This document shows, piece after piece, positions 4,819 to 48,416 of a DNA stretch of 64,000 bases; the stretch's first letter is position 1, and each line of letters opens with the position of its first letter. Both the position numbers and the translations under genes were made by a program. Under the pieces are notes generated by a model. That model did not search any database and had not been told where the DNA came from. It saw only the letters and a list, made by a program, of their open reading frames with translations. Where the stretch lies: assembly GCA_001780035.1 (NCBI GenBank), contig MFEY01000007.1:331146-395145 (forward strand), given 5' to 3'. The DNA is from Candidatus Doudnabacteria bacterium RIFCSPHIGHO2_12_FULL_48_16 (GTDB lineage Bacteria; Patescibacteriota; Doudnabacteria; UBA920; O2-02-FULL-48-8).

Positions 4819-5882
4819 TATTTTAGCTGGTTATTTTCAACCTTAAAGATCTGCACATCCTTGGCGAGTTTTGGCAAATGATGTTCTTCCGTAGTTGTGA
4901 TAAAAATTTGATGGCCGGTTAACGTTTCCAGCAATTTCGTCCGGCGAATTTCATCGAGTTCGGAAAACACATCGTCCAGTAGGATGACCGGCTTACTCTC
5001 ACCATTCGTTAAATATTCGGCCTGCAGTAACTTGAGTGCCAAAATCTGGGCGCGCAATTCGCCGCGGGAGGAATTATAAATATTCAGTTCCCCATTTTTT
5101 TTGATCAAAAAATCATCCCGATGCGGGCCCAGCAAATTTTTACCAGCCCGGATTTCCGCCGGCTCCAACCGGCCCAGTTCCGCCAAAAATTCATTCTCGT
5201 TCGCGAACCGGTTAGCGCTTACAAATTCAATCTGATATATATGATCAAAGTTGGTGAGGTCACGGTTGACCTGATTAAAGCGGCGGTTCAAAAACCCGAT
5301 CAGTTCTGTGCGCTTGACCCAAATAGTTAGGGCTGTTTTGGCCAATTCCAGGTTCCAATAATCAAGCTCGCTCCTTTGACCCTCCCCGCGCCCCAGCAGC
5401 TGCAGGAGCGCTCCACGCTGCTTCAAGACATGCTCTAGCGAAGACAGACTCAGCACATACAGGGAGTCCCGCTGGCCGAGCACCTCGTCCAGATATTTGC
5501 GGCGGAAGACGGGACCCAAAATGAACAAATTCAAATCATTGGGGACGAACAGCACGGTAGCGAAAGTTTGCCACAAGCTCCGTTTCGTTTTTTGGCCATC
5601 GAGTTTAAATGAGCGCTTAACCAAACCGGACTTTTGGACCACGGTTTCCATCTGCCGGTTGCCCGCTCGGCCCTGGAGAGCAAAATAATCTTCCCGGTGG
5701 TTGATCAGCAGCTCATCCGGAGCGCGGAATGACCTGAGGCGCGACAAAAAATAAATGCTTTCGAGCAGGTTGGTCTTGCCGGACGCATTGGCTCCCAATA
5801 TCAAAACGAGGTCAGAGTTGAAACTGACCTCAAGGTTTTGATAGTTACGGAAATTTTTTAAAACCAGATTGGTTAATCTCAT
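4818..5882 (-). CDS. recF: DNA replication and repair protein RecF
   Basis: 354 aa; N-terminal LVLKNFRNY...GANASGKTNLLE P-loop; position after dnaN. Confidence 0.93.
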   Translation of the reverse strand: MRLTNLVLKNFRNYQNLEVSFNSDLVLILGANASGKTNLLESIYFLSRLRSFRAPDELLINHREDYFALQGRAGNRQMETVVQKSGLVKRSFKLDGQKTKRSLWQTFATVLFVPNDLNLFILGPVFRRKYLDEVLGQRDSLYVLSLSSLEHVLKQRGALLQLLGRGEGQRSELDYWNLELAKTALTIWVKRTELIGFLNRRFNQVNRDLTNFDHIYQIEFVSANRFANENEFLAELGRLEPAEIRAGKNLLGPHRDDFLIKKNGELNIYNSSRGELRAQILALKLLQAEYLTNGESKPVILLDDVFSELDEIRRTKLLETLTGHQIFITTTEEHHLPKLAKDVQIFKVENNQLK

Positions 5883-19362: not shown

Positions 19363-19471
19363 TTACTCCCCCGTTGACTCTCTTCTGACGCACCCCCTCT
19401 TATATTAAGAGGGGGTTTTAGATTGCTTATTTACTCCTCCCCTTAGAATAAGGGGAGGGTGGGAGGGGTTA

Positions 19472-19500
19472 TTGACCTTGGGTCTTAAAACTGCTATCTT
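19472..19500 (+). promoter_or_regulatory. putative sigma70-type promoter of the GC-rich small ORF
   Basis: TTGACC (19472-77), 17-nt spacer, TATCTT (19495-500). Confidence 0.4.
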
Positions 19501-19562
19501 AATGAGCTTACTTGACCGGGCGAATCCGGTCCGTATGGCGACGAAAGGCAGCAGGGGGAAAA

Positions 19563-19826
19563 ATGAAGAACGCAGGAGCAAAGCGACAGACCGGTGGCGA
19601 GAGCGGAACCGATCGGCCATCGCGTCGCCGCACGCCGACCGAGCGCATGCCGACGCGGGAGCCGGGCACGGGCGGCGACGCGGATGACCAGGGCGGTCAG
19701 TCCGATCGCCCGGCGTGGGACACGCCGACCGACCGCTTGCCCACGAGCGACCCGCCGCCGGCCGATGAAGCGGATACGGCCGACGCGGCGCCCGATCGCG
19801 GACAGGCCACCACGGCGATCGCGTAG
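19563..19826 (+). CDS. hypothetical low-complexity Pro/Thr/Asp/Arg-rich protein (87 aa) in a very GC-rich patch
   Basis: SD GGGGG 4 nt before ATG 19563; internal repeat TPTERMPT / TPTDRLPT; strong terminator follows; every frame is open here, so coding status is uncertain. Confidence 0.35.
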   Translation: MKNAGAKRQTGGESGTDRPSRRRTPTERMPTREPGTGGDADDQGGQSDRPAWDTPTDRLPTSDPPPADEADTADAAPDRGQATTAIA

Positions 19827-19849
19827 AACGCGACGCGGACAACCAGATG

Positions 19850-19890
19850 GACCGGGTGTGCAGTGACAGTGCACATCCCGGTCTTTTTTT
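19850..19890 (+). terminator. strong intrinsic terminator
   Basis: GACCGGGTGTGCA-GTGACAG-TGCACATCCCGGTC followed by T7. Confidence 0.8.
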
Positions 19891-19891
19891 A

Positions 19892-19941
19892 TTCCGACCT
19901 CGACAAAGTCGAGCGTCGGAACTCCGACCGAAGCGTCGGAG
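19892..19941. repeat. two-hairpin TTCCGAC/GTCGGAA module (copy 1)
   Basis: TTCCGAC-CTCGAC-AAA-GTCGAG-C-GTCGGAA then CTCCGAC-CGAAGC-GTCGGAG; shares TTCCGACC, GCGTCGGAAC and (opposite strand) CCGACGCTTCGG with 32170-32304. Confidence 0.75.
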
Positions 19942-19946
19942 TTTTC

Positions 19947-20411
19947 TTATCGTCCGATTCCAGACCAGGCGATCGCGCACGCATCTGCGGCATCATCGGG
20001 TTTGGGAATTTTTTTCAGTTTCAAAAGTTTGACGATCATGGTCTGCACTTGTTTTTTGTCCGCCTTGCCATAGCCGGTCGTGGACATTTTGACTTGCAAC
20101 GGCGTGACTTCAATCATTTTGAGTCCGGCTTCAGCCAAAGTTACCATGACCATGCCCCGCGCCTGCCCGACGGTCATCGCGGTTTTGACATTGGTTTCGA
20201 AAAACAACGATTCGATGCAGGCGCTGTCCGGTTTTAATTTTTTGATTAAGGTGGTTAAATCTTTTTTGATTTCCAAAAGCCGGGCCGGCTCGGCCGTCCC
20301 CGCCTTGGTCGTGATACAGCCGCATTCCAGCAAAGAAGTTTCCTTGCCAGTATGTTTGAGGAATGCATAGCCGGTGCGCGCTATCCCTGGATCAATTCCT
20401 AGTATGATCAT
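19947..20411 (-). CDS. ruvC: crossover junction endodeoxyribonuclease RuvC
   Basis: 154 aa; MIILGIDPGIARTGYA start typical of RuvC. Confidence 0.92.
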   Translation of the reverse strand: MIILGIDPGIARTGYAFLKHTGKETSLLECGCITTKAGTAEPARLLEIKKDLTTLIKKLKPDSACIESLFFETNVKTAMTVGQARGMVMVTLAEAGLKMIEVTPLQVKMSTTGYGKADKKQVQTMIVKLLKLKKIPKPDDAADACAIAWSGIGR

Positions 20412-45385: not shown

Positions 45386-46709
45386 TTAAAATTTCATGCT
45401 GTAGGTTTGGCAAAGCCGCGAGTAATCCCAGCACGACAAACAGCATGAGTCTCCCCTGCTGAATTGTAACAAAATAATGATCAAACTGTCCCAGGATCAA
45501 AAAAATCAATCCTAGAAAGATCAGGGAAAATTTAAGCGGCCCAACTGGGCCATGCCGCGCGCCGCGGAAAATTTGGATGATGATCAGGACAAAAATAGCC
45601 AAAGCTCCGACACCGGATTCCGCCGCAATGAAAATAAAAATATTATGGGCCGGTTGGTATTGCCAGGCCTTCAAAGCATACAGATCCCGCAGTGCCGGCA
45701 CGTAGTTCCCTACCCCTACCCCCAGCCAGGGATGTTGGGCCACCAAGTTTAACCCTAGGTCATTGAAGAATCCACGGTCTGTAATGGAGGTTTGATTCTG
45801 ATCCAAAACCCGGGTTTTGAGTAGCTCAAAATAAGTTCCATCCGCCTTCGTTAAAACTCCGGCGGACAGGCATGAAACAATGCCAATAATGGCTAAGATA
45901 AGCGATTTTTTCCATTGTTTGTGCCAGAGCCAATAGATGCCAAAGCCCAAATATCCGATGGCCGTGGCCAACCAGGCTAGCCGGGAAAAAGTCACAAAGA
46001 TTCCGAGCGTGATTAAGATCGTTCCACATGAAACCAAGAATAGCCTTAGTTTTGTTTCACGCCTGCCCGCCGAAGCCTCGGCGAAGGCGGATGAAACCAA
46101 AAAAAAGCCCATAAATAAGGCAAAAATCAGGAAAGACGCTAAAACATTGGGGTGTGGGAATGTTCCGTAAGCCCGAATAACCTTCCCTCCCAGAGTATCG
46201 ATCGTGGCTAATCCCGTCGTTCCCAGCGGCGGGATATATTCCCCAAGGAATTTCAGGCCAAGCATATGTTGCACGTGAAACTGCCAGAGAGCCAAAATCG
46301 CCTGGGTAACCCCTAATATAAATAGTATAGTGGCTGAAAGCCGGAACTGAATTGTTTCACGGAATGTTTCACGGAGGTAAATTAGCAGTAATAATAGCTC
46401 AAACCATTTAAAAACCCCGTAAATCCCCAGTTTTATTTGTTTCACGTGGAACACCGAGACTACAACCCAGAGAAATAACCCCAATAATAGCCAGAGTTTG
46501 CTGGTCAGGCTAATTCGAGGGCGCTCAAAAACCAGCCAGCTTAAGAAACACAAAATTAAGATTAAATCAGTCAGATAAACAAAGATGGCCAGGTGGTAAT
46601 TGAAATACCAGGAGATATATGATTGGGCCGGATTATAAAGCATCCGGGTTTGAATGGGCAGCAATAATAGGAATAAATAAAAGAAAACTTCATGAAACCG
46701 AAGTTTCAT
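45372..46709 (-). CDS. O-antigen ligase-like (Wzy_C) membrane protein, second copy
   Basis: FSRLAWLATAIGYL motif, many TM; tracked ORF extends to 46847 but that extension is made of parS-type repeats, so start set at MKLRFHEVFFYLF (46709). Confidence 0.65.
   Translation of the reverse strand: MKLRFHEVFFYLFLLLLPIQTRMLYNPAQSYISWYFNYHLAIFVYLTDLILILCFLSWLVFERPRISLTSKLWLLLGLFLWVVVSVFHVKQIKLGIYGVFKWFELLLLLIYLRETFRETIQFRLSATILFILGVTQAILALWQFHVQHMLGLKFLGEYIPPLGTTGLATIDTLGGKVIRAYGTFPHPNVLASFLIFALFMGFFLVSSAFAEASAGRRETKLRLFLVSCGTILITLGIFVTFSRLAWLATAIGYLGFGIYWLWHKQWKKSLILAIIGIVSCLSAGVLTKADGTYFELLKTRVLDQNQTSITDRGFFNDLGLNLVAQHPWLGVGVGNYVPALRDLYALKAWQYQPAHNIFIFIAAESGVGALAIFVLIIIQIFRGARHGPVGPLKFSLIFLGLIFLILGQFDHYFVTIQQGRLMLFVVLGLLAALPNLQHEILNDKL
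46053..46098. repeat. imperfect palindromic element bounded by parS half-sites, inside the ligase CDS
   Basis: TGTTTCAC-GCCTGCCCGCC-GAAGCCTC-GGCGAAGGCGG-ATGAAACC; encodes the in-frame insert-like AEASAGRRETK. Confidence 0.55.
46438..46453. promoter_or_regulatory. parS centromere-like site
   Basis: TGTTTCACGTGGAACA; its reverse complement TGTTCCACGTGAAACA is the Bacillus-type parS as I recall it. Confidence 0.8.
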
Positions 46710-46773
46710 AAGCCAAGCTGATAAATGTTTCACGCCTGCCCGCCACGCCGCATTTTCTAGAAAATTTAAAAAT

Positions 46774-46789
46774 TGTTTCACGTGAAACA
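46774..46789. promoter_or_regulatory. parS centromere-like site (perfect palindrome)
   Basis: TGTTTCACGTGAAACA, 16/16 palindromic parS consensus. Confidence 0.85.
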
Positions 46790-46938
46790 TAAATTTTTGG
46801 CTAATATTATTGATAAAAGGCAAGGCAGGCGGGTGAAACATTGACATATTGAATAATTTATTTTTTAATAAAAATATGAATTTACATTTTGAGTTTCTGC
46901 TTTTTCAAGATATCATGGAACGTAAGAGGAGGTAACCC

Positions 46939-47187
46939 ATGACGCCAAGAATCGTCGTGGCCAAGGGAGCGGGGTTGATCCGGCAATACGCGCAGCTGCG
47001 TTCCCGCTGGGATCGTGAAGCCTGGCTTGCCAAGGCTGAGCGGGCCGTCAGCTTGTGCACAAGAGATGAAGAAGAAAGGCTCCTGGCCATGATCCGTCTC
47101 ACGCAATATGCGCTGGGACAGGGGAGCCCTTACCCGGATAATAAAGAAGGAGGAGACCATGGGACGAAGGGAGGAGGTTCTCGCTGA
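46939..47187 (+). CDS. hypothetical small protein (82 aa) in a GC-rich islet
   Basis: SD GAGGAGG 6 nt upstream of the ATG; no family recognised. Confidence 0.4.
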   Translation: MTPRIVVAKGAGLIRQYAQLRSRWDREAWLAKAERAVSLCTRDEEERLLAMIRLTQYALGQGSPYPDNKEGGDHGTKGGGSR

Positions 47188-47413
47188 TGCAATTGCGGCG
47201 CTTAATCGAGCCGCCTGGGCTCTGAATGAGCCTTGGTCAGAGCAGAGTGCGCGCCGCAATCAGGACACTCTCGCCGCCATTTGTCGCGCCTTGCCGTATT
47301 GTCAAGGGCAGTGGTCGAGCCGCTTGCCTGGCCATTTCCAGGCCGCGGCCGAGGCTATGAAACAAAAGCTTCTGGCGCGCTTGGCCCAGCCGGGGACACT
47401 CAAGGAGCGTTGA
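47159..47413 (+). CDS. hypothetical small helical protein (84 aa) in a GC-rich islet
   Basis: SD AAGGAGGAG 3 nt upstream of ATG 47159 (M18 of tracked ORF); overlaps the previous ORF by 29 nt. Confidence 0.4.
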   Translation: MGRREEVLADAIAALNRAAWALNEPWSEQSARRNQDTLAAICRALPYCQGQWSSRLPGHFQAAAEAMKQKLLARLAQPGTLKER

Positions 47414-47560
47414 ATGGTCCACCCAATCGTCGATTGAACGCCAGGTAGTCGGGCCGATAGCCAGATAATAAGGCTATCATCCAACACTGGCGTTCGTTCC
47501 TGCTCTAGAAAACATACGGAGATAAATGTATAATATATGAACTTGAAAATTGTTGAAATA

Positions 47561-47590
47561 CGGGGTGTCGTATACCGGTAGTATGCACGC
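47561..47590 (+). pseudogene. duplicated 5' half of a tRNA-Pro gene (fragment)
   Basis: CGGGGTGTCGTATACCGGTAGTATGCACGC matches 25/30 positions of the intact tRNA-Pro 5' half that starts 53 nt downstream. Confidence 0.65.
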
Positions 47591-47613
47591 CACGCCCCCC
47601 ACACCAGTTTTAT

Positions 47614-47687
47614 CGGGATGTAGTATACCGGTAGTACACGCGCTTCGGGTGCGTGAAGACCGGGTTCGATTCCCGGCATCCCGACCA
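47614..47687 (+). tRNA. tRNA-Pro (CGG)
   Basis: hand fold: CGGGATG/CATCCCG acceptor, CGCGC-TTCGGGT-GCGTG, CCGGG-TTCGATT-CCCGG, A73 CCA. Confidence 0.85.
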
Positions 47688-47697
47688 AAAGACGCTC

Positions 47698-47799
47698 GGA
47701 CCTTGCAAAATTACCGGTTGTCGAAATTTAATTAAATTTCGCAACCTGCGTTCTCGACCCGCTTAAAGCGGGTCTGCGAAGGCTAATTTTGCAAGGTCC
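47698..47799. repeat. 102-nt element with perfect 16-bp terminal inverted repeats and two internal hairpins
   Basis: GGACCTTGCAAAATTA (47698-713) / TAATTTTGCAAGGTCC (47784-799); inner GGTTGTCGAAATTT-AATT-AAATTTCGCAACC and GACCCGCT-TAA-AGCGGGTC. Confidence 0.6.
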
Positions 47800-47816
47800 T
47801 CGCTGAAAGCAATTAT

Positions 47817-48416
47817 ATGAAACCTTTAATACTCGGCATTAACGGCTCGCCGAACCAAAACGGCCGCGTGGAACAATATTTAAAACTGGTTTTGAAAGAG
47901 ATCGGCATAGCGGGCGGGACAACCCGGCTTTTAAATTTGCGGAAATACAAGATCTTGCCGCACCGGGGTGCGTTGAATGCCAAAAGTTATTTGGAAAAGA
48001 GCCAAGACGACATGGCTGAACTGGTAAAACAGATTTTAAGGGCCGACGGCGTCATTTTTGCCACTCCCACACACTGGTTCCATGTTTCATCGCTCATGAA
48101 ATTATTTATTGATCGACTGACTAGCCTGGAGCATTACAATTTTTTGTTGGAAGGCAAAACAGCCGGCGTGATCACTTACGGTCCGCAGGGCGGGGCGCTC
48201 AATAGCGCTATGAATCTGCTGATGATCCTGAATCAATGGGGCATGAGTGTCCCGCCATACGGAACGTTGTTTGATGAGGGCCGGCAGGACAAATGGTTTG
48301 CTAGGGACTTGAAGCTCCTAGCTAAAAACATTTTGACCCAAATAAAAATATCCCGGCAGACGAATTGGGGATACAAGGGGGCCAAGTATAAATACCGGCC
48401 GACCGAGCTGATATGA
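47817..48416 (+). CDS. NAD(P)H-dependent FMN reductase / flavodoxin-like fold protein
   Basis: 199 aa; MKPLILGINGSPN start and VIFATPTHWF motif. Confidence 0.75.
   Translation: MKPLILGINGSPNQNGRVEQYLKLVLKEIGIAGGTTRLLNLRKYKILPHRGALNAKSYLEKSQDDMAELVKQILRADGVIFATPTHWFHVSSLMKLFIDRLTSLEHYNFLLEGKTAGVITYGPQGGALNSAMNLLMILNQWGMSVPPYGTLFDEGRQDKWFARDLKLLAKNILTQIKISRQTNWGYKGAKYKYRPTELI

Follow-up and report, generated by a model that had tools for sequence, protein, structure and literature searches.

A probable native small-protein operon ending in a conserved hairpin beside tRNA-Pro in Candidatus Doudnabacteria

Two overlapping ORFs, a mini-ORF and a stem-loop

Between the wzy gene and a tRNA-Pro gene of Candidatus Doudnabacteria bacterium RIFCSPHIGHO2_12_FULL_48_16 lies a G+C-rich islet of small open reading frames (ORFs), analysed here within a 64-kb stretch of contig MFEY01000007.1 that we call the window. 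ORF A (46939–47187, plus strand, 82 aa) is preceded by the Shine–Dalgarno (SD) sequence GAGGAGG at 46926–46932 and ORF B (47159–47413, plus strand, 84 aa) by the SD AAGGAGGAG at 47147–47155; the first SD is 6 nt ahead of its ATG, and both fall within 5–6 nt. The SD of ORF B is carried by the final codons of ORF A, which encode a Gly/Lys-rich tail, and the two ORFs overlap by 29 nt in different frames, the layout being that of a small overlapping gene pair in one operon, each with its own SD. An original prediction, made from the letters of the window, had described both ORFs in this way, together with an inverted repeat downstream and a count of 36 G+C in the 60 nt at 47221–47280; all of these were reproduced, the count exactly and the repeat as 9 bp, GAACGCCAG at 47436–47444 and CTGGCGTTC at 47487–47495.

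A third SD was overlooked in that account. AAGGAG at 47402–47407 precedes a seven-codon mini-ORF (MVHPIVD; the whole unit spans 47402–47437, plus strand), whose ATG at 47414 abuts the stop codon of ORF B (TGAATG) and whose own stop codon at 47435–47437 overlaps the 5′ arm of the hairpin formed by the inverted repeat, so that the sequence reads ...AAGGAGCGT TGA ATG GTC CAC CCA ATC GTC GAT TGA. The stem-loop (47436–47495, plus strand) has GAACGCCAG and CTGGCGTTC as its conserved basal stem, and its interior holds a further hairpin, GATAGCC/GGCTATC. Its position makes ORF B the final ORF ahead of the mini-ORF and hairpin. The two-component module that had been offered as one reading of the islet is kept in extended form, as one coupled unit of three cistrons plus a hairpin.

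Strong SD–ATG combinations are scarce in the window, with 18 on both strands compared with 26 ± 4 in shuffled sequence, and four of the 18 fall inside 46939–47414, where they open ORF A, ORF B, a 12-codon ORF and the mini-ORF. A codon model trained on the long genes of the window ranks the frames of A and B, by weak scores, as the best of six. These two observations and the distribution of G+C over codon positions, described below, favour translation of A and B as judged from sequence. The 12-codon ORF belongs to a second strong SD, GGGAGGAGG at 47171, which stands before an ATG at 47187 overlapping the stop codon of ORF A (TGATG). This is the classic coupling layout of the relatives, yet it opens only these 12 codons, out of frame with ORF B (47171–47225), and may be the trace of an earlier frameshift in the second cistron.

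The ORF region contains 60.4% G+C, compared with 47.9% in the window as a whole, which places it in the top 1.5% of 475-bp segments; it is not the maximum, as other genes reach 60–62%. By first, second and third codon position (GC1, GC2 and GC3) the values are 0.64/0.53/0.60 for ORF A and 0.67/0.54/0.64 for ORF B, with typical host genes at about 0.52/0.36/0.57. Since the excess sits at positions 1 and 2 and the GC3 of A and B (0.60–0.64) is host-like, lying within a host range of 0.26–0.76 with a median near 0.57, it reflects proteins rich in Ala, Arg, Gly and Leu and not imported DNA. Elsewhere in the window, a 62% G+C segment (19405–19980) between a tyrosyl-tRNA-synthetase-like gene and ruvC has ORFs open in several frames and a GC2 of 0.66; no frame there carries a coding signal by the codon model and Rfam gave no hit to it.

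The original prediction recognized no family for either product, and searches of Pfam, PHROGs, NCBIfam and PADLOC likewise gave no match for A or B. Among 5.8 billion clustered proteins only the queries themselves were found, and viral contigs and GenBank phages held nothing for the islet ORFs. The sole additional match to ORF B (P0128, from a phmmer search of 1.84 billion representatives) is a tandem-repeat translation matched in seven stretches and was discarded as an artefact. ORF B is listed as a hypothetical protein in the NCBI records of metagenome-assembled genomes (MAGs), and several RIFCSP MAGs (Rifle aquifer, Candidatus Doudnabacteria, candidate phyla radiation or CPR/Patescibacteria) have entries identical to it and to its neighbour proteins. 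A literature search found nothing on these small proteins. Structure prediction, which had been recommended, gave helical AlphaFold2 models, calculated from single sequences and offering moderate evidence of fold: a three-helix bundle followed by the disordered Gly/Lys-rich tail for ORF A [predicted local distance difference test (pLDDT) score of 72] and a three-helix bundle for ORF B (pLDDT 77). A Foldseek search of the models against the PDB returned nothing below E = 0.2, and the generic three-helix bundles at E ≥ 0.2 (bS20, BAG and MIT domains) were judged non-specific. A paralogous relationship between A and B was unsupported (BLASTP E = 0.57). The products would be small three-helix-bundle proteins, which probably act together.

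The slot and its hairpin in related loci

Neighbourhoods of other Candidatus Doudnabacteria loci were gathered with MurE and Wzy_C as anchors, giving 1.36 Mb of DNA with 7,247 six-frame ORFs, which were searched locally with hmmsearch and phmmer, and 22 informative loci. All of these relatives are distant from the window, with identities of at most 70% for MurE and 63% for Wzy. The gene order is kept: murE and wzy, a divergent slot, tRNA-Pro(CGG), NUDIX and/or flavin mononucleotide (FMN) reductase genes, tRNA-Arg, tRNA-Ala and RNase HII. In about 20 of the 22 loci, deep relatives with Wzy identities of 36–44% included, the slot contains between one and three ORFs of 62–88 aa with strong SDs, on the strand divergent from wzy and with a G+C content of 0.45–0.56 compared with 0.38–0.47 for the locus. 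Many relatives have a single slot ORF.

Two slot families, C (nine members) and D (nine or ten members), have their significant matches (hmmsearch E ≤ 0.03, against the 7,247 ORFs) confined to the slot, and profile searches against the PDB and Pfam gave nothing for either. ORF A is similar to the second slot ORF of locus L007 (L007_2; BLASTP E = 8e-06, 41% identity over 44 aa; phmmer E = 0.0076 among the 7,247 ORFs), and the two constitute what is named family E in this analysis; another slot ORF, L082_1, bridges family D and family E (hhalign E of about 0.002). The combinations vary from locus to locus, from C with D, D alone, or C with E and another ORF to A with B in the window. The coupling design recurs, with the SD of the next cistron placed in the last codons of the previous ORF and a '...KGG' tail in L004, L007, L093 and L095, and the window layout of A, B, mini-ORF and hairpin matches the L007 design of C, E, third ORF, mini-ORF and hairpin.

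The related slot ORFs are under purifying selection. The proportion of synonymous differences exceeds that of nonsynonymous differences (pS > pN) in all seven slot-ORF pairs tested, and for L004_2 and L093_2 the nonsynonymous and synonymous divergences are dN 0.088 and dS 0.335 (dN/dS 0.26). In the same two loci (L004, 6179–6618; L093, 1990–2407) the second slot ORF is 84% identical and the first ORF, which it overlaps, 25%; either the divergence is locally extreme or one of the two cistrons has been replaced.

The empty sites that the original prediction had proposed to look for were found in two loci, about 20 of the 22 being occupied. In L170 the slot has no ORFs beside wzy and 180 nt separate wzy from tRNA-Pro; in L089, the closest relative by Wzy (63%), there are likewise no ORFs beside wzy and the distance is 80 nt, although the contig ends just past the tRNA and ORFs further on are possible. 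Given these two loci, the operon may be dispensable. In L090 (2155–2390, minus strand) a frameshift or a sequencing error divides the family D slot ORF into two pieces that overlap, and the slot gene may be decaying in that lineage. Assembly GCA_034680565.1 contains two Doudnabacteria versions of the murE–wzy locus, L004 and L170, with MurE 70% and 66% identical to that of the window, one slot being occupied and the other empty; since the two loci differ, the bin is probably a mixture of two species.

The hairpin is homologous in 18 other loci. The pair ACGCCAG...CTGGCGT occurs once per genome in the 1.36 Mb, always 3′ of the slot ORFs, and each slot has one hairpin whatever its number of ORFs. 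Compensated versions of the stem are AGGCCAG/CTGGCCT in L010 and L169, AGGCTAG/CTAGCCT in L005, AACCAG/CTGGTT in L007 and L101, GCGCTAG/CTAGCGC in L099 and GCGCCGG/CCGGCGT in L082. Over the 19 sequences 86% of cells pair and nine of 11 pairs have changed on both sides; none of 500 shuffles reaches the observed value, and slid controls pair at 32–44%. The few G–U pairs in the stem fit the ORF-sense strand. The interior varies in length from 9 to 60 nt, and the hairpin is predicted in every minimum-free-energy fold, in which outer pairings between the region after the ATG and the tail vary and yield no consistent alternative helix. An SD–ATG lies 13–22 nt upstream of the stem in all 19 loci, and in the relatives the stop codon of the preceding ORF is usually embedded in this SD (TAGGAGG, TGAGGAG). 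The mini-ORF peptides are unconserved across loci and contain no codon run; the idea that their Pro codons sense tRNA-Pro(CGG) was dropped, as only about two in ten use CCG. Rfam searches brought only tRNAs to threshold in the window, nothing credible in 46700–47850 at E ≤ 10 and no match at the hairpin in six related loci. From this sequence comparison the inverted repeat appears to be the conserved core of the locus.

Nested tRNA-Pro genes and other flanking features

The original prediction had placed a duplicated 5′ half of tRNA-Pro about 60 nt beyond the islet. This 30-nt copy (47561–47590) starts 65 nt past the inverted repeat and ends 23 nt before a predicted functional tRNA-Pro(CGG) gene (47614–47687, plus strand). 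Most relatives have one common tRNA-Pro(CGG) sequence; the window and L009 share a variant with a compensated acceptor stem (CGGGATG.../...CATCCCG). The partial copy in the window is of the common type, with one mismatch in 30 nt. L009 (1121–1320) presents, in order, a common-type 5′ half, a linker, the complete variant tRNA, a complementary linker and a common-type 3′ half, and folds with the tRNA on the extended anticodon arm of an outer tRNA shell (z = −4.2). A nested design with a second variant (z = −6.1) is found in L097 (1491–1698, minus strand) and L104 (reverse complement, 4850–5140), and the linker helix differs between these two by three consecutive compensated pairs (CCCGCACCAC/GTGGTGCGGG versus CCCGTTACAC/GTGTAACGGG). 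The outer 3′ half keeps the common tRNA-Pro sequence of the clade in L009, L097 and L104, although in L104 an extra insertion of about 38 nt interrupts it.

The window retains the outer 5′ half and the linker CACGCCCCCCACACCAGTTTTAT (47561–47613, plus strand, outside the operon), and the outer 3′ half has been lost. The supposed scar is thus the leftover of an outer tRNA-Pro shell that encloses the inner tRNA-Pro in relatives. Because the nesting occurred on the tRNA side, independently of the slot ORFs, the fragment is not an att scar of the islet. No att-type direct repeats bracket the islet: the only pair is the tRNA-derived one (47561–47590/47614–47643), both members of which are on the tRNA side, and other short repeats near the islet are in inverted order or AT-rich chance matches. 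Nested tRNA genes of this kind were not described in the literature searched, where a study of group I introns in tRNAs of Patescibacteria does not deal with tRNA-Pro.

Directly after the 3′ end of tRNA-Pro, and before the FMN-reductase or NUDIX gene, the window contains a structured RNA of about 115 nt (47692–47808) that also occurs in L170 (2532–2650), L110 (188–304) and L100 (1722–1836), each on the minus strand. A second subtype is present in L004, L005 and L007; the last has two copies, one of which follows tRNA-Arg. The RNA has conserved ends (ACGCUCGG ... CCUCGCU), a three-way junction and no Rfam match, and RNAalifold on four sequences of one subtype gave 42 pairs, 20 of them with compensated changes.

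On the other side, the slot is bounded by wzy (Wzy_C/O-antigen-ligase-like), whose likely start lies within a perfect parS palindrome, ATGTTTCACGTGAAACA (46774–46790, minus strand), that encodes M F H V K. In seven aligned Wzy_C orthologues M20-F21-H22 is invariant, the consensus begins MFHVKQF and the palindrome at the start codon is kept in all seven, which suggests that the true start is the parS ATG and not the ATG at 46847 of the longest ORF. Further parS-like copies of GTTTCAC/GTGAAAC inside wzy (5′ region, 46000–46850) encode FHVK or FHVQ motifs. Two promoter-like sites frame the operon. A candidate operon promoter, TTGAGT-16-TATCAT (46889–46916, plus strand, 9/12 consensus positions), occupies an AT-rich spacer about 10 nt upstream of the SD of ORF A, and TAGAAA-17-TATAAT (47506–47534, plus strand, 10/12), assigned to the tRNA-Pro unit, forms the right boundary; it corresponds to a conserved tail, '..TCTGGAAA..', that follows the hairpin and precedes tRNA-Pro in relatives. 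Pfam genes within 4 kb on either side encode TrmB, MurE, Wzy_C, FMN_red, RNase HII, GIY-YIG, tRNA_bind and a deaminase, and these gene tables include no integrase.

A proposed native operon and its rivals

We propose, with a probability of about 0.7, that the islet is a native, vertically inherited and fast-diverging small-protein operon of Candidatus Doudnabacteria and not foreign DNA. Transcription would begin at the promoter-like site at 46889–46916, in the AT-rich spacer that the operon has in common with the parS-tagged wzy promoter, and ribosomes would be handed on along a coupled chain, first from A to B and then to the mini-ORF. The mini-ORF would terminate on the 5′ arm of the hairpin, a structure that may mark or stabilize the transcript's 3′ end; the tRNA-Pro unit has its own promoter-like site a short way downstream, at 47506–47534. 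Since the last ribosome would stop on that arm, 3′-end formation may depend on translation.

Several observations weigh against this proposal. Codon usage lends weak support to the frames of A and B, which score +0.10 and −0.01 compared with 0.2–0.4 for typical genes. The three sampled copies of the species equal the window over the shared locus, except for the last 20 or so bases of one contig, and so offer no within-species variation that would bear on coding. The link of ORF A to the slot families is one pairwise match, its comparisons with the profiles of D (E = 0.33) and C (E = 0.077; both hhalign) being non-significant, and ORF B has no relative in the protein databases or among the slot ORFs of relatives; the kinship of A and B with those ORFs is mostly positional. 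The hairpin arms were placed by eye before counting, which somewhat inflates the pairing statistic. The window hairpin has no U-tract, its tail being TCGTTCCTG (TTCGTC... after the stem), which leaves a terminator role hypothetical, and both promoters are consensus matches only.

The remnant cargo of an integrative element, which is what the original prediction favoured, would have entered at tRNA-Pro and left the duplicated 5′ half as its att scar. The islet does resemble tRNA-targeted islands in having a tRNA gene with a partial duplicate, raised G+C and orphan ORFs, and the empty slots of L170 and L089 would suit such an origin. It differs from them in its want of an integrase within ±4 kb and of bracketing att repeats, in its clade-wide position, in its host-like GC3 and in the absence of any viral or phage match. 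The duplicate, a 5′ half, almost touches the tRNA: it lies between the islet and the tRNA, 23 nt from the latter, instead of bracketing the islet, and it belongs to the nested arrangement, which is independent of the slot ORFs. With the same type of module in about 20 related loci, 18 of them with the covarying hairpin, and down to Wzy identities of 36–44%, we reject this reading as highly improbable, by the refuting condition that the original prediction had itself named; the adjacency of tRNA-Pro looks like ancestral synteny and not a signature of integration. A subtler form of exchange would leave slot and hairpin ancestral and have the ORFs swapped by recombination like cassettes, A and B having come from an unsampled relative. 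This account would explain the differing ORF combinations, the 84% and 25% identities of adjacent ORFs in L004 and L093, the empty slots of L170 and L089, whose flanks are similar to those of the window, and the orphan status of ORF B. However, no recombinase, att or attC-like repeat is present at the locus, each slot has a single hairpin however many ORFs it contains, GC3 is host-like, and the only homologue of ORF A is in L007, the second-closest relative by Wzy (56%) and the third by MurE (67%), as fits vertical descent. Fast divergence alone can explain orphans when the sampled relatives are as distant as these (MurE ≤ 70%), and we consider such turnover rather unlikely. Integron cassettes share with the slot small, promoterless-looking, variable ORFs and an inverted repeat that is imperfect, conserved at its ends and variable at its centre; an attC identity was rejected, as the ends (A)ACGCCAG/CTGGCGT(T) are not RYYYAAC/GTTRRRY, each slot has one hairpin and there is neither IntI nor an array.

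A toxin–antitoxin or other selfish or defence two-gene module beside a tRNA gene is suggested by the two small overlapping genes of about 80 codons each, co-translated by layout as in type II toxin–antitoxin operons, by their variability among relatives, by the nearby tRNA genes, by the possibility of loss and by the absence of a known function. No toxin or antitoxin domain or fold was found: neither A nor B matches Pfam, NCBIfam, PADLOC or PHROGs and neither C nor D matches Pfam, and the models, for which the PDB offered no match below E = 0.2, are plain three-helix bundles and not known toxin folds or ribbon–helix–helix or helix–turn–helix antitoxins. Known toxin–antitoxin systems are sporadic and mobile and have no conserved mini-ORF and hairpin such as end the slot operon, whereas the slot holds one fixed chromosomal position across a class-level clade, appears nowhere else in the 1.36 Mb and often contains one or three ORFs; we regard such a module as quite improbable. 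WXG100/ESAT-6-like pairs, tandem and co-transcribed helical proteins of 80–100 aa, were compared by motif only; the related slot families do have a conserved Trp, but the resemblance was rejected because there is no W-x-G motif, the models are three-helix bundles and not helix–turn–helix hairpins, and type VII secretion genes are absent nearby. It would also be possible, although with similarly low probability, for the ORFs to be untranslated, as a noncoding RNA or chance frames in G+C-rich DNA beside a hairpin that alone is functional. Stop codons are scarce in such DNA, ORFs of about 80 codons are not rare at 60% G+C, and four further ORFs of 61–128 aa overlap the islet, so ORF length by itself is weak evidence; in one MAG, L001, NCBI annotates a gene on the minus strand at the place where ORF A is called elsewhere, codon usage scores weakly and ORF B is an orphan. 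Translation is nevertheless indicated by three consecutive strong SD–ATG pairs at ideal spacing, where such sites are rare, by annotated frames that are the best of six, by protein-level purifying selection on the positional counterparts and by confident helical bundles from single-sequence AlphaFold2. The ORF region shows no excess of RNA structure (fold-energy z = −0.43) and no Rfam match, on which grounds it was rejected as a structured RNA.

The hairpin invites comparison with intrinsic terminators, which it resembles as a G+C-rich stem-loop ending a transcription unit, and in the distant relatives L099, L082 and L110 a T-run does follow it. The window and its nearer relatives instead have TTCGTC... 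after the stem, a scan of 46600–47850 found no terminator-like sites, and its basal helix, unlike that of ordinary terminators, keeps its sequence throughout a class-level clade. Leader-peptide attenuators (the trp, pheA and his leaders and the ermC type) are similar in their very short SD-driven ORF, whose ribosome would here too cover the 5′ arm of a stable hairpin and so couple translation to RNA structure. They differ in that the slot mini-ORF and hairpin are at the 3′ end of the operon and not in a 5′ leader, with no U-tract in the window and a downstream tRNA-Pro that has its own putative promoter and is on the opposite strand in half of the relatives. The minimum-free-energy folds gave no consistent antiterminator pairing, and the mini-ORFs no regulatory codon run. 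A more ambitious and rather doubtful interpretation is that the slot is a clade-specific protein–RNA device, an undescribed CPR regulatory or RNA-binding system situated between the parS/wzy–murE promoter and an unusual tRNA-Pro locus. Rapidly diversifying helical proteins would be made by coupled translation, and the halt of the last ribosome on the conserved hairpin would decide the fate of that RNA: a 3′ end might form there, transcription might continue into the tRNA-Pro unit, or the proteins might bind the hairpin of their own transcript.

On the proposal of a native operon, the slot operon is new to the databases, although not evidently a new kind of system. A G+C-rich patch of orphan ORFs beside a scarred tRNA resembles an island and yet is ancestral here, the telling checks being the G+C content by codon position and synteny in distant relatives. 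To RNA biologists the nested tRNA-Pro and the covarying three-way-junction RNA may be of greater interest than the islet. The CPR gains a conserved, strongly SD-driven small-protein locus, comprising families C, D and E and a covarying hairpin, that lies outside Pfam and Rfam. As small, fast-evolving proteins predicted to be highly expressed in bacteria with reduced genomes that are thought to be host-attached, its products are, speculatively, candidates for roles at the host interface or in the cell envelope.

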